A DNA stretch of 64,000 nucleotides, from the NCBI RefSeq assembly GCF_057098645.1, contig NZ_CM169472.1. The stretch is one strand, 5' to 3'. Below the pieces are notes generated by a model. The model ran no database searches. It was not told the DNA's origin and saw only the letters and a list, made by a program, of their open reading frames with translations. Made by a program: the position numbers and the translations under genes. The stretch's first letter is position 1, and every line of letters starts with the position of its first letter. Shown here piece after piece: positions 2,929 to 47,686 of the stretch.

Positions 2929-3684
2929 ATGAGTGATAACCTGTTAAACAAACTGACCCAACTGAAACTCCCGGCGATGGCCGGGAGCCTGATACGGCAG
3001 CGGGAAACGCCTCAGACCTACGACGAACTGTCGTTCGAGGAAAGGCTGACGCTGCTGGTTGATGACGAGCTTCTGAGCAGGGAAAACAGCCGTGTGGCAC
3101 GGTTGAGAAAAAATGCCGGCCTGAAATACCAGGCAACACCGGAAGGGCTGCGCTATCCGGCCTCAAGAGGTCTGCGGGCTGAACAGATGAGAGAACTGCT
3201 GAACGGCCACTACATAACCCACAGGAAAAACCTGCTGATAACCGGTCCGACAGGATGTGGCAAGAGCTGGATAGCCAATGCGCTGGGCGAACAGGCATGT
3301 CGACAGAAACACAGCGTCCGGTACTGTAGAACCGGGCGATTACTGGAACAACTGGCTCAGGGACGTGTTGATGGCAGCTGGCTGAAATATCTGAAACAGT
3401 TGCAAAAAATACAGGTTCTAATCCTGGACGATCTGGGGCTGGAACAGTTAAGTAACGCCCAGTGTAATGACCTTCTGGAGCTCATAGAGGATCGTTACGG
3501 ACAAAGCAGCACGATAGTGGTAAGCCAGTTCCCGGTAGATAAATGGCATGGTCTGATGGAGAACCCAACAACAGCAGATGCCATCCTGGACAGACTGGTA
3601 CATAACTCACACCGAGTGGTCCTTCAGGGAGAGTCACTGAGGAAAAATCCCCCGGTAGTGGAAAGCAGCGAAAAAACGCGTTAA
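2929..3684 (+). CDS. istB: IS21-family helper ATPase IstB (251 aa)
   Basis: Walker A GPTGCGKSW and DExx-like LILDDLG motifs; ATG 2929 preceded by AAGGA, 16 nt after the istA stop; ORF-track upstream extension overlaps istA and is not used. Confidence 0.85.
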   Translation: MSDNLLNKLTQLKLPAMAGSLIRQRETPQTYDELSFEERLTLLVDDELLSRENSRVARLRKNAGLKYQATPEGLRYPASRGLRAEQMRELLNGHYITHRKNLLITGPTGCGKSWIANALGEQACRQKHSVRYCRTGRLLEQLAQGRVDGSWLKYLKQLQKIQVLILDDLGLEQLSNAQCNDLLELIEDRYGQSSTIVVSQFPVDKWHGLMENPTTADAILDRLVHNSHRVVLQGESLRKNPPVVESSEKTR

Positions 3685-18815: not shown

Positions 18816-19523
<708 letters not shown>

Positions 19524-45175: not shown

Positions 45176-45981
45176 TAAGAACGCTGCCAGAGGTGAATAT
45201 TAAAGTCCGTCTGGCAGTCGAACACTTCTTTTGCTGCCAGTGTTTGCCAGACTTCTGGCTTCGCACGCCAGGCAAACGGCGTCATCTGCAATAATGCGAC
45301 GGCTTCATCACCGCGAAGACGCATCGGATAACACAACTCATCACTCTGCTGTAATGTAAAACCTTCCAGTTGTTCTGCATGAGGTGCATGAAGATGTACT
45401 TCATTGTAAATCAGCCCCTTCAGCTCCATCAAATGTCGCGGTCCCGGCGTGGCAGTAATGACCCAGCCGCCGGGCTTCACTACTCGTGCTAATTCTTCTG
45501 CTTTACACGGCGCGTAAATACGTATTATGGCGTCCATACTGGTATCGGAAAACGGCAAACGGTGGCTGGAAGCGACACAAAGAGTGACCTGCGGATAGCG
45601 TTTCGCCGCCGCTTTTATCGCTACCTTCGAAACATCCAGACCAAACGTGGTGATTTCGGGCAACGCATCGGCAAATGCGTGTGTGTAATACCCTTCACCA
45701 CAGCCAATATCCAGCACCGCCGTGGCCTTTTCATCAAGCCGTTCCCGCAGTTGGGCGACAATTGCATCACGCAGCGGCTGATAATGTCCGGCATCTAAGA
45801 ATGCGCGGCGTGCTTGCATCATTTCCGCGCTGTCGCCCGGATCACGGGACCGTTTATGCTGAACGGGCAGCAGATTGACATACCCTTCTTTCGCCATATC
45901 AAACTGATGTCGTTGGGGACAGATATAGCTGTTTTTTTCACGCGAAAGAGGCTGATGGCAAAGTGGACAGGAAAACGACAT
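45172..45981 (-). CDS. rlmA: 23S rRNA m1G745 methyltransferase RlmA
   Basis: 269-aa ORF with N-terminal Cys4 zinc motif and SAM-binding DIGCGEG. Confidence 0.9.
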
Positions 45982-46075
45982 GACAACTCCGGCAGGATAC
46001 TAAAGGCCGCAAGTGTAACGCGAATCACGCGGCGGGCAAATATCCGAACGCCAGGAGCGAAGATAAAGCATAGTA

Positions 46076-46102
46076 AAAAGCCTCGCATTCGACGAGGCTT
46101 TA
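46076..46102 (-). terminator. Rho-independent terminator after cspC
   Basis: AAAGCCTCG...CGAGGCTTT with a T-run on the minus strand. Confidence 0.65.
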
Positions 46103-46146
46103 TAGCGAGATTGAAGCGTATTCACACTTCAGATCAGTGGATTCGA

Positions 46147-46356
46147 TCAGATAGCTGTTACGTTAACAGCTGCCGGACCTTTCTGGCCGTCCTGAATTTC
46201 GAACTCAACGTTCTGACCTTCAGCCAGAGTTTTGAAGCCATTACCCTGGATAGCGGAGAAGTGTACGAACACGTCTTTGCTGCCATCAGCAGGAGTAATG
46301 AAGCCAAAACCTTTAGACTCGTTGAACCACTTAACCTGACCTTTAATCTTTGCCAT
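46147..46356 (-). CDS. cspC: Cold-shock-domain protein CspC
   Basis: 69-aa ORF with [15 protein letters not shown] motif. Confidence 0.95.
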
Positions 46357-46368
46357 TTGAAAAATTCC

Positions 46369-46512
46369 TTAGATTGTTTTCTTCGCCCGCAGGCATAACA
46401 TAGATAAAACTGACACATTACTGCATGAGGCACCAATATAAGGCTCGGCAGAGAAGCGGTATTCAACGTCAACGTGTTTACTCAGGACTTCTTTACTGAA
46501 AATGCCACACAT
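46369..46512 (-). CDS. yobF: Small protein YobF (47 aa), upstream of cspC
   Basis: Hand translation gives [47 protein letters not shown]; the ORF track shows only a longer overlapping frame. Confidence 0.7.
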
Positions 46513-47180
46513 AAACAGAACTGTACCTCGTTTAACCCGAAATCTGTTATCACATACAACGTTAATTATGGCAAGCCATTTTTAAACATGTCTCGATCAG
46601 ACGCACAAATCTCGATACGTCTTCCACTTTTTTTGCACACTTATGCAACGGAATACGCGCCGATATATCATTGTGCTTAACCTTGCCAGTTCAGGCAGAT
46701 ACTTAAACTGGCGTAGTTTCTAACATAGTTCAATAAGTTCAGTTGTTCCAGGCCAGTGGGAGAAGTTATTACATAGTGCGTGCAATATCACATTTTCTGC
46801 TATGCAATGAATAAAAAGTTATATCACTTTTTCTCATAAAACAGGCAGTTAACGGCTATCAATCACCCCAAAGAGAAGTCAATCCCAAAGGTATTGGAAA
46901 TTTAAAATAAGAAAAAATGATGAATAAGCAAAAAAATCAAGAGAGAAACGTTTCGCTAATAAATAATACCACGCTTAATCACAAATCCGATGTAAACATC
47001 CTAATAAATTAATGAGGAAAATATCTTTTTCTGATATCCCGTTACGCAAATAAATAATATGATAATTATTTGAAGTCAGACCAGAGTTTTAATTTGAAGC
47101 AGTTGCACCATGACAGTGCGTATAATCAGGATGAATTGAGTAACCCTTCAACGACGGGGTTACTCAAGATTGAGGAAGGA

Positions 47181-47468
47181 TTATCGTTCGGCGACCAGGC
47201 GAATAATATCTTCGTCTTCAACCGATTTTTGACTCTCAATGGTCTTTTTATCTGCTTTCTCTGGTTCGTTTGCTTCGCACAAACGACGTAACAGTGCATT
47301 TTGACGTTTTTGCTGATCCAGCAACGCCTCAAGCAGTTCAATCTGTTCGTTAGTCCGAGAACTGGCACGATTAATAAAAAACCACAAGATGAGCCCGATA
47401 AGAAGAACCACCACCGATACAACCAAAGACGCAATGTTCATCACGCCTGAATTTACAACTTCGTTCAT
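47181..47468 (-). CDS. yebO: Small membrane protein YebO
   Basis: 95-aa ORF recognised as YebO. Confidence 0.8.
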   Translation of the reverse strand: MNEVVNSGVMNIASLVVSVVVLLIGLILWFFINRASSRTNEQIELLEALLDQQKRQNALLRRLCEANEPEKADKKTIESQKSVEDEDIIRLVAER

Positions 47469-47542
47469 TTCACCACCTCTGAGTAGAGGCGCTATTCTAC
47501 CACTGCTGGAGAGGAAGAAAATCTAGTGCTGAAAAAATGATA

Positions 47543-47686
47543 TCACCACGGGATAAACTGGTTAATGGCACAAATTCCGCTGAAAAATTGCACATCCTGA
47601 TCGCACATCATGTTGAATACCTGCGCCCAAAGCAGCAAGCAAGCCAACACCACGACAACCAGAACGACCCATCGAAACTTTTTCAC
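47543..47686 (-). CDS. mgrB: PhoQ-inhibiting small membrane protein MgrB (47 aa)
   Basis: Hand translation from a GTG start gives [47 protein letters not shown]; absent from ORF track. Confidence 0.8.

Follow-up and report, generated by a model that had tools for sequence, protein, structure and literature searches.

The yobF-cspC operon of Escherichia coli K-12 (b1824-b1823) is a stress operon whose organization, promoters, small-RNA regulators and status as a hotspot of adaptive mutation have already been published. Its promoters appear in the literature as yobFp1, yobFp2 and cspCp8, the yobF leader is a target of the small RNAs OxyS and CyaR, and the mgrB and yebO genes upstream of it have been described as a polycistron. 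Loss of function of yobF-cspC is repeatedly selected in ageing E. coli colonies; in Salmonella, cspC-null mutants grow faster on succinate, and loss of rbsR and loss of cspC each unlock growth on this substrate. The locus matters because CspC is a global RNA chaperone affecting stress responses and virulence, and the control of the cspC transcription level is poorly understood. The other described systems closest to parts of this locus are the cspA thermoregulator, translated upstream ORFs and leader peptides, the H-NS-bound upstream regions of proU and bgl, and the operator of rbsD.

The window, by which we mean the whole stretch of 64,000 nucleotides that was analyzed, carries what we take, with a probability of roughly 80%, to be this known operon together with a composite upstream control region. 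A 1401-bp query (window 46100-47500) was 100% identical to E. coli O145 RM9872, and the locus was found in 5411 of 5426 complete E. coli genomes. Features lie on the minus strand unless stated otherwise. The cspC coding sequence (46147..46356) encodes the 69-aa cold-shock-domain RNA chaperone, and the RefSeq annotations of O145 and K-12 agree on it; the ORF is identical to b1823 by position and sequence, its cold-shock domain places it in the CspA family, and nearly all of the 80 Enterobacteriaceae loci compared encode a 100% identical protein. Conservation at its codon positions 1, 2 and 3 is 0.999, 1.0 and 0.899, the usual coding pattern. In O145, PGAP names the cspC copy ‘cspE’. An intrinsic terminator follows cspC at 46075..46103, a GCCTCG...CGAGGC hairpin and then a T run. 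The yobF ORF (46369..46512; 47 aa, Pfam DUF2527/DUF2627) also forms most of the 182-nt cspC leader in the shorter transcript. YobF matches PF10736 (DUF2527, a 38-position model) over residues 1-38 with E = 1.7e-30 and a score of 105 bits (cut-off 25), and all 74 YobF homologues contain this domain. The upstream neighbor, yebO (47181..47468), is co-transcribed with mgrB and ends in a hairpin with a perfect 11-bp stem and a 10-nt loop and no T run after it (47136..47167), at the place where relatives have a hairpin of other sequence. The initial annotation was correct in naming yobF and cspC as an operon, and both the sequence and the RefSeq annotations of O145 and K-12 confirm its 47-aa yobF, the stop codon of which lies exactly 12 nt before the cspC ATG; its remark that yobF had escaped the list of ORFs is plausible, yobF being shorter than the 60-aa default ORF cut-off.

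Transcription starts upstream of yobF

The supplement of Kim 2012 lists a K-12 start at 1905641 (249 reads, 26-nt UTR), which corresponds to window position 46538, and another at 1905817 (107 reads, 202-nt UTR), which corresponds to 46714. The same table has no entry between 1905818 and the yebO gene, and it covers K-12 in a few laboratory conditions, in which a repressed promoter would stay invisible. It also holds weak internal cspC starts within yobF, in the cspCp8 region (46468..46485; entries 1905571, 1905578 and 1905588, with 7-11 reads each). As has been shown in K-12, transcription should come mainly from the proximal promoter P1 (46538..46574), which combines a -35 element TTGCCA (46574-46569) with an extended -10 TGTGATAAC whose -10 element occupies 46551-46546, starts at a G at 46538 and gives a 26-nt leader. 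The promoter TTGCCA-17-GATAAC of the published sigma-70 genomic SELEX occurs once in the window, at 46574-46546, and the P1 sequence is invariant in 21/21 close relatives and nearly so across 80 species. The second start, likewise shown in K-12, would come from the distal promoter P2 (46714..46750; -35 TGGAAC at 46750-46745, -10 TATGTT at 46727-46722), which starts at 46714 and gives a 202-nt leader. This promoter-like site is present in all 21 Escherichia, Salmonella and Citrobacter sequences and was found in that clade only. Salmonella start-site and transposon coordinates appear to fit a distal start some 200 nt ahead of yobF. Our promoter scan returned P1 and P2 as the only promoter-like sites common to all 21 close relatives.

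Several further elements surround these promoters. An overlapping alternative proximal promoter (GAGACA-18-CATAAT, 46565..46594) has a predicted start near 46558; a published Salmonella yobF::sfgfp fusion primer starts at the position matching GTTGTATG, and we infer that the two are linked. Upstream of P1, the block GATTTGTGCGnCnGATCGAGACAyGTTTAAAAATGGC (46575..46612), conserved in 80/80 species, is probably an upstream A-tract element or a factor site. The footprint GCATAAnTGTGC (46635..46646), some 100 bp ahead of the P1 start, recurs without a shift in position in 44 of 79 loci, and a clade-conserved footprint, TTTATgCATTac..aGCAt-AAAAaGTGATAT (46783..46815), is found 70-100 bp upstream of the P2 start. 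A direct repeat related to this last footprint was also detected. The sigma-70 genomic SELEX table notes several promoters within a ‘670 bp spacer’, and binding peaks have been reported for sigma-S near 46665 and for sigma-54 near P1. A sigma-54 reading of CTGGAAC at P2 was rejected, the -12 GC being present in some Citrobacter, absent in E. coli and not conserved; several CRP-like TGTGA half-sites were also set aside for their poor second half-sites and wrong spacing to the promoters. A sigma-S in vitro run-off study obtained signal from a spacer probe labelled ‘-f’ and from an ORF antisense to cspC, which leaves room for plus-strand transcription.

The cspC leader and the A/T-rich spacer

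The yobF segment does not evolve like a gene with freer third positions. Conservation at codon positions 1, 2 and 3 is 0.997, 0.983 and 0.982 in codons 1-26 and 0.917, 0.930 and 0.932 in codons 27-47, without codon periodicity. Across species the ORF is anywhere from 24 to 56 aa long and the frame of its 3' part differs, while the ATG codons of yobF and cspC remain 153-163 nt apart. A GCC-N4-GGC hairpin (46385..46394), located in the 3' end of yobF directly ahead of the cspC ribosome-binding site, is found in 78/80 species, with the loops TGCG, TTCG, CGCG, CACG, TACG and TGTG and in three yobF frames; its closing pair covaries through five standard pair types, and it aligns with the GCC-GAAA-GGC hairpin of the cspA model. 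The yobF region as a whole gave a fold z of +1.06 and a covariation term of -0.52, and its near-invariance leaves covariation uninformative either way. Because the codon positions are equally conserved and both frame and length vary, yobF looks constrained as the leader of cspC, and a possible further reading is that it acts mainly in cis on cspC rather than as an independent protein-coding gene. The RNA-level cis element beside cspC would be the yobF segment rather than the A/T-rich tract, with the 182 nt between the P1 start and the cspC ATG probably constrained as nucleotides and carrying the small hairpin before the ribosome-binding site. YobF has been reported as a protein that accumulates; because the protein is reported to be made, the nucleotide constraint may add to a function of YobF instead of replacing it. 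Nucleotide-level conservation also suggests that mutations scored as ‘yobF’ act in cis on cspC expression.

Between yobF and yebO lies a spacer of 668 bp (46513-47180) with no annotated feature in K-12 or O145. Its GC content is 35.6%, falling to 29.2% at 46800-47100, compared with 49.7% for the whole window; about 420 bp of it (46715..47135, 32% GC), upstream of both mapped starts, is fast-evolving and a reported H-NS target. The longest ORF candidates, of 31 aa (plus strand), 68 aa (plus strand, antisense to yobF) and 73 aa (plus strand, antisense to yebO), had no match in a Pfam search, and the description of some 670 bp of A/T-rich non-coding DNA without a convincing ORF is borne out. The spacer is a general property of the family: at least 488 bp of non-coding DNA precede yobF in 74/77 Enterobacteriaceae species measured, with a median of 38% GC for positions -500 to -100. 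A blastn comparison of 80 species found shared sequence reaching no further upstream than about 100 nt before yobF; this profile misses the short island around the box described below in distant genera, which a direct motif scan detects, and short conserved footprints are present within the fast-evolving tract.

The proposal of a long structured 5' UTR proved mostly wrong. The mapped starts lie at -26 and -202 only, with none listed upstream of -202; at most 202 of the 668 bp is leader. A start maps just upstream of yobF and the A/T tract carries no mapped start, as the initial annotation had foreseen for the case that its own proposal failed, and the footprints are the part of that case that did not hold. 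Prediction of RNA structure gave the proposal no support either: the 202-nt leader folds slightly better than its shuffles (z = -1.64, covariation term -0.3) and the distal 466 nt no better (z = -0.30). These 466 bp would be something other than leader, comprising the hairpin at the 3' end of mgrB-yebO and about 420 bp of fast-evolving A/T-rich DNA. Binding of nucleoid proteins, the other suggestion made for this DNA, is plausible given its composition and the single ‘HNS’ flag that the sigma-70 genomic SELEX table attaches to the spacer, and we think that the tract is probably a platform for H-NS that carries short factor-binding footprints. The small RNAs that had been suggested are not indicated, with no Rfam family above noise and no terminator in the spacer, and no conserved small-RNA promoter on either strand.

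Other explanations of the spacer have to be weighed against this one. A long structured 5' UTR of yobF-cspC that takes up the whole spacer, or the greater part of it, would agree with the conserved length of the spacer, with the existence of the 202-nt leader and with the match of the Rfam cspA thermoregulator model RF01766 at 46072-46532 (136.9 bits, gathering score 78), which shows that cold-shock genes can carry structured leaders; yet this match owes its score mainly to the coding region and reaches only 20 nt beyond the yobF ATG on the upstream side, a direct alignment between the cspA 5' UTR and the yobF region gives a score of 17 where shuffles average 16.0 (sd 2.2), and the distal sequence has no start listed upstream of 46714, no better fold than shuffles, no conserved promoter-like site and no conservation beyond its footprints, all of which makes this the most improbable reading that we considered. 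That the spacer conceals an unannotated small RNA or small protein gene is very unlikely. The 31-aa plus-strand ORF at 46917-47012, which spans the box and has related ORFs in several Citrobacter species, was rejected: it is missing in 3/21 close relatives and in another frame in 4, is shifted in frame by a poly-T length polymorphism within E. coli, and has neither a ribosome-binding site nor a Pfam match. The sigma-S run-off signal and the sigma-S peak speak for a hidden transcript; against it stand the missing Rfam family, terminator and conserved promoter, and a small-ORF ribosome-profiling supplement with no entry whose coordinates begin with 19076 to 19081, which covers most of the spacer. 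Finally, the distal tract could be leftover DNA without function, for example the trace of a lost gene, that only chance and A/T-biased mutation have kept. A 331-aa metallo-beta-lactamase-fold gene lies between yebO and yobF in about 36 of the 77 species, Enterobacter hormaechei retains a 20-aa remnant of it, and most of the tract evolves fast. Nevertheless, the E. coli spacer was rejected as a scar of this gene when tblastn found no remnant there, the species that bear the gene retain about 510 bp of non-coding DNA before yobF, and short blocks, among them a 16-nt box, stay the same from genus to genus between flanks that vary, a pattern that indicates selection; we consider a mere leftover quite unlikely. 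None of these explanations, the preferred one included, accounts for the persistence of a non-coding spacer of at least 488 bp in 74/77 species. A long A/T-rich gap beside a gene, the locus cautions, is not evidence for a long leader.

The RbsR-type box

The locus, although otherwise known, yields one new regulatory lead that can be tested, a conserved repressor-type box far upstream of yobF. The box, a LacI-family operator-like palindrome of RbsR type, AGCGAAACGTTTCTCT (46942..46957; as search pattern, AGCGAAACGTTTCKCT), is identical to the K-12 rbsD operator TCAGCGAAACGTTTCGCTGA at 15 of 16 core positions. The next best match to this operator in the 64-kb window reaches 12/16, none of 5000 shuffles of the spacer reached 14/16, and the upstream regions of purH, add and udk give at best 11/16, below the spacer box. 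The box is invariant in divergent E. coli strains and in 15 of 20 Escherichia, Salmonella and Citrobacter relatives, the other 5 having one substitution, and its core CGAAACGTTT is kept in 60/79 species, some 390-470 bp ahead of yobF. Just 5' of the box there is always an A/T-rich -10-like hexamer (TATTAT, TAATAT or TTATTT). A conserved module of about 60 bp adjoins the box, and none of the explanations considered here accounts for this module. C and G at half-site positions -6 and -5 mark RbsR sites, while PurR sites have GC and Cra sites TG. PurR and Cra are less likely than RbsR as the factor at this box, which has CG at these positions. The P2 start lies 235 bp and the P1 start 411 bp downstream of the center of the box, and the promoter scan of the 21 close relatives found no conserved promoter next to it. 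In the accessible sources that cite the RbsR genomic SELEX study, the targets named are rbsD, purHD, add and udk, and yobF is not among them. Genome-wide site searches, we assume, commonly scan a limited distance upstream of start codons, and the box may have been missed because it lies about 440 bp from the yobF ATG. On sequence criteria, it is a conserved and previously unreported candidate repressor-type site.

Beside the box, other genera carry an inverted repeat TGCCTC-N5-GAGGCA, and this repeat and TTTCATTATTTTGGTGCA are both absent in E. coli. Only the outer TGC/GCA of the repeat are fixed; it was rejected as an RNA hairpin, its inner pairs often being C-A or C-T and its mismatches not compensatory, and it is more likely a DNA site. 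The repeat and TTTCATTATTTTGGTGCA resemble the NtrC box TGCACCAnnnTGGTGCA, but with mismatches at the most conserved NtrC positions, and this is taken as no more than a resemblance.

An RbsR-type operator of the LacI family would be among the footprints of the A/T tract. The proposal that the box is a working site, through which RbsR or a close LacI-family relative tunes yobF-cspC from a distance, as a companion to a yobF that is mainly a cis leader, is tentative, and we hold it to be possible rather than probable. Such a factor could counter H-NS, block read-through from mgrB-yebO or gate a cryptic distal promoter. If the proposal is true, it would connect the level of the RNA chaperone CspC with the availability of ribose or nucleosides, and the succinate phenotypes of Salmonella rbsR and cspC mutants would gain a mechanistic thread. 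An alternative is that the box marks a third, normally repressed promoter, from which derepression by ribose would produce a leader some 430 nt in length or else a transcript of its own and make the tract a leader conditionally. The close match to the rbsD operator and the -10-like hexamer, placed as at rbsD, agree with this idea, as does a TTGAGG-17-CATTAT sequence just downstream of the box in other genera, and standard start-site maps would overlook a repressed promoter. E. coli, however, has no acceptable -35 element there and its equivalent of the downstream -10 is CTTATT, without the essential A; the promoter scan also found no conserved site at this place and the accessible sources on RbsR targets name other genes, so that we regard a third promoter as unlikely.

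Comparison with known systems

The cspA thermoregulator resembles the region in its GCC-N4-GGC hairpin before the ribosome-binding site and in its terminator, both of which align with the window. The score of the RF01766 match comes mostly from the homologous coding region, the UTR part of that alignment contains many non-standard pairs, and homology of the cspA 5' UTR with the yobF region was rejected, the small hairpin excepted. Unlike the cspA leader, that of yobF-cspC holds a translated ORF, and it is predicted to fold no more stably than shuffled sequence. cspC is reported to be expressed at 37 C rather than cold-induced. With translated upstream ORFs and leader peptides, yobF shares its short length, its end close to the main gene, the conservation of nucleotides rather than codons and a variable length and frame; it differs from them in having no evident attenuator, regulatory codon run or coupling mechanism. 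The A/T tract has the low GC content (29-32%), the fast evolution and the published H-NS flag of the H-NS-bound regions upstream of proU and bgl, where the outcome is silencing, whereas yobF-cspC is well expressed, with 249 and 107 start-site reads.

The operator of rbsD and the box share the C and G at half-site positions -6 and -5. They differ in the right half-site, which in the box is mismatched at one position in E. coli and degenerate in other genera, and in their surroundings: the nearest start codon is some 440 bp away from the box, and no known promoter overlaps it. The closest system of all is the yobF-cspC operon of K-12, with which the window shares gene content, gene order and spacing. 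The K-12 and O145 spacers show 13 differences, all at 46716-47018 and none in 46513-46715, and the published K-12 start sites and promoter hexamers are unchanged in the window with the exception of a single base, which precedes the P2 start by 2 nt. The window shows no substantive difference from K-12 and represents the O145 allele of the same locus.

Genomic context and conservation of the spacer

The yobF-cspC locus is already known, and 5411 of the 5426 complete E. coli genomes carry it; our 1401-bp query (window 46100-47500) is E. coli DNA, with 100% identity to the O145 strain RM9872. On the minus strand, mgrB (47543-47686) and yebO (47181-47468) are followed by a 668-bp gap (46513-47180), yobF (46369-46512) and, 12 nt further on, cspC (46147-46356). 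NCBI's pipeline names this last gene cspE in O145 and in the majority of E. coli genomes, but its position and the K-12 annotation both mark it as the orthologue of cspC. The gap has no annotated feature in K-12 or O145, its GC content is 35.6% (29.2% in 46800-47100) against 49.7% for the whole window, and its three longest ORFs gave no Pfam match, so that the initial annotation was correct in placing a gene-free, A/T-rich gap at the yobF-cspC locus.

To follow the gap across Enterobacteriaceae, 80 loci were fetched, one genome per species. In a blastn comparison, the sequence conserved by all 80 begins only about 100 nt ahead of yobF and continues from there. The gap takes two forms, one of about 590-970 bp and one of about 1540 bp with an extra gene for a 331-333-aa metallo-beta-lactamase-fold product directly after yebO. 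About half of the sampled species carry this gene (L003, L038 and about 34 other loci, at roughly 1470-2475); E. coli, Salmonella, Citrobacter and Klebsiella are without it, Enterobacter hormaechei (L072) retains a 20-aa C-terminal remnant, and no remnant was found in the E. coli gap. The non-coding DNA before yobF is at least 488 bp long in 74 of the 77 species measured and is A/T-rich across species (median 38% GC). Between O145 and K-12 the gap shows 13 differences, every one within 46716-47018.

Promoters, leader and bound proteins

The K-12 genome-wide start-site table in the supplement of Kim 2012 gives yobF starts at 1905641 (249 reads, 26-nt leader) and 1905817 (107 reads, 202-nt leader), together with three weak starts within yobF assigned to cspC, and lists no other start before yebO. 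The two yobF starts correspond to window positions 46538 and 46714. Ahead of the former lies the proximal promoter P1, TTGCCA-17-GATAAC, which occurs once in the window (46574-46546), is known from genomic SELEX (selection of binding sites in vitro) with the sigma-70 holoenzyme and has an extended -10 element, TGT preceding its -10. The distal promoter P2, TGGAAC-17-TATGTT (46750-46722, minus strand), lies ahead of 46714. P1, P2 and an alternative overlapping P1 are the only promoter-like sites kept in 21 of 21 Escherichia, Salmonella and Citrobacter sequences; a recent paper uses the names yobFp1, yobFp2 and cspCp8. For Salmonella 4/74 we infer a distal start some 200 nt ahead of yobF, which fits a published start coordinate and three transposon positions, and the alternative proximal start is where the primer of a published Salmonella yobF::sfgfp fusion begins. 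Aligned within this clade, the gap consists of separate conserved blocks amid freely varying sequence. These are P1 with 40 nt upstream, GCATAAnTGTGC (46646-46635; also in 44 of 79 loci), GATATAT (46669-46663), P2, a stretch 70-100 bp upstream of P2, and about 46905-46988, centred on AGCGAAACGTTTCTCT.

With the yobF starts mapped at 46538 and 46714, the leader takes up no more than 202 bp of the 668-bp gap, and the A/T-richest part of the gap lies upstream of all mapped starts. Fold z-scores against shuffles were +1.06 for the transcript from the proximal start, -1.64 for the 202-nt leader and -0.30 for the distal 466 nt, where the yebO 3' hairpin (47136-47167) is the sole robust structure; the consensus fold of the 202-nt leader over 14 species had a covariation term of -0.3. 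The interpretation given in the initial annotation is supported in part. A 202-nt leader exists, while the long structured 5' UTR that had been proposed finds no support in the starts or the fold scores. The case that the initial annotation named as refuting its reading, a start adjoining yobF with the A/T tract untranscribed and unconserved, largely holds.

Hidden small RNAs in the spacer, also suggested earlier, are not supported, an Rfam scan of the gap having returned no significant match. The one real Rfam match is the cspA thermoregulator model (46072-46532, 136.9 bits), which takes in coding region and stops 20 nt before the ATG of yobF; when the cspA 5' UTR was aligned directly with the yobF region, the result did not rise above shuffles. 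Known small RNAs elsewhere in the window are sroD (26937-27022) and the SraC/RyeA and SdsR/RyeB pair on opposite strands (62020-62164). The manganese riboswitch yybP-ykoY (RF00080; 44381-44477, plus strand) lies upstream of mntP, a gene known to be under riboswitch control, and is missing from the default Rfam scan because it scores 42 bits, slightly below the gathering score of 45. A short hypothetical ORF in RefSeq overlaps the mntP start.

Nucleoid-protein binding at the gap is plausible, since a sigma-70 study flagged H-NS there, along with several holoenzyme peaks. A sigma-S holoenzyme peak is reported near 46665 and a sigma-54 holoenzyme peak near P1, and under nitrogen limitation yobF-cspC mRNA drops in an rpoN-dependent manner. 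Among the templates that a sigma-S in vitro run-off study lists as preferentially transcribed by the sigma-S holoenzyme are a 'forward' yobF-yebO spacer probe and the CFT073 ORF c2230, antisense to cspC (window 45814-46398, plus strand), which hints at antisense transcription across cspC-yobF. In ageing colonies the operon is also a mutational hotspot, for insertion sequences as well as for point mutations.

An RbsR-type operator-like box

The block centred on AGCGAAACGTTTCTCT (46957-46942, minus strand) resembles the rbsD operator. The K-12 rbsD control region includes TCAGCGAAACGTTTCGCTGA, which serves the ribose repressor RbsR as operator, and the box agrees with its 16-nt core at 15 of 16 positions. 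The second-best match within the 64-kb window reaches 12/16, and none of 5000 shuffles of the gap attained 14/16. Sequences upstream of the reported RbsR targets purH, add and udk gave a best match of 11/16. Among 20 clade relatives, 15 have exactly this box and the remaining five carry a single substitution; the most divergent of the sampled E. coli alleles also keep it unchanged, although the length of the adjoining poly-T varies in them. This tract (46925-46937, minus strand) has 6-8 T among E. coli strains and varies in Citrobacter species too. In a motif scan, 60 of 79 species had the box core CGAAACGTTT between -390 and -470 relative to the ATG of yobF, with the left half-site well kept and the right half-site degenerate.

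An E. coli-specific direct repeat, with copies 91 bp apart and 90% identical, comprises CGTTTCGCTAATAAATAATA (46949-46968), which takes in the right half of the box, and CGTTACGCAAATAAATAATA (47040-47059), which is not conserved in E. albertii. Upstream of K-12 rbsD, a weaker RbsR-like TGTAAAACGTTTCGAG (11/16; 343-358 of the fetched region, L083) is found some 80 bp ahead of the known operator.

Other observations speak against a simple operator role. The nearest mapped start is 235 bp away from the box, the 21-sequence clade scan found no conserved promoter adjoining it, and the secondary sources consulted do not name yobF among the RbsR targets. Both rbsR-null and cspC-null mutants of Salmonella are reported to acquire fast growth on succinate; in the authors' scheme RbsR acts upstream of RpoS, whereas the effect of CspC does not depend on RpoS, which argues against RbsR acting only via cspC. 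We put real binding of an RbsR-family protein at the box, with an effect on the yobF-cspC operon, at roughly three in ten, and regard the conserved box as a modest, testable lead.

Across the fetched loci (L003-L082, about -470 to -390), a conserved module some 60 bp long comes after the box core, consisting of a TGC-N11-GCA inverted repeat and then GTCAT-N8-TTTCATTATTTTGGTGCA; it is largely decayed in Escherichia and Salmonella (window copy 46890-46960). The inverted repeat showed no covariation, so that a DNA site is more probable here than an RNA hairpin. The TTTCATTATTTTGGTGCA element resembles an NtrC half-site.

Conservation of yobF ahead of cspC

Conservation by codon position was scored over 80 aligned sequences (79 fetched loci and the window). 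Values at positions 1/2/3 were 0.999/1.0/0.899 for cspC, 0.997/0.983/0.982 for yobF codons 1-26 and 0.917/0.930/0.932 for codons 27-47, so that the usual coding signature is present in cspC but not in yobF, whose three codon positions are equally conserved. The yobF ORF is 24, 38, 43, 46, 47 or 56 aa long depending on the species, the reading frame of its 3' part differs among loci (L003-L082, at 3001-3160), and the Pfam model of YobF spans just 38 residues. Despite these changes in length, the distance from the yobF ATG to the cspC ATG keeps to 153-163 nt.

On this pattern of conservation, yobF looks constrained as RNA or DNA and not only as protein, and we infer selection on the 182 nt from the proximal start to cspC as nucleic acid; any function of the YobF protein would be additional. 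Possible reasons for such selection are promoter-proximal signals, pairing sites for OxyS and CyaR (published for the yobF leader), the internal cspC starts and a hairpin. Larger pairings in this nearly invariant region, such as that of the yobF ribosome-binding site with GUGCCUC, are predicted. The non-coding style of yobF conservation is likewise a modest, testable lead.

The hairpin, GCC-N4-GGC, lies directly ahead of the cspC ribosome-binding site in 78 of 80 species; its loop is variable, it falls in three reading frames across species, and its closing pair occurs as five standard pair types. In the cspA model, the GCC-GAAA-GGC hairpin aligns with this hairpin of yobF.
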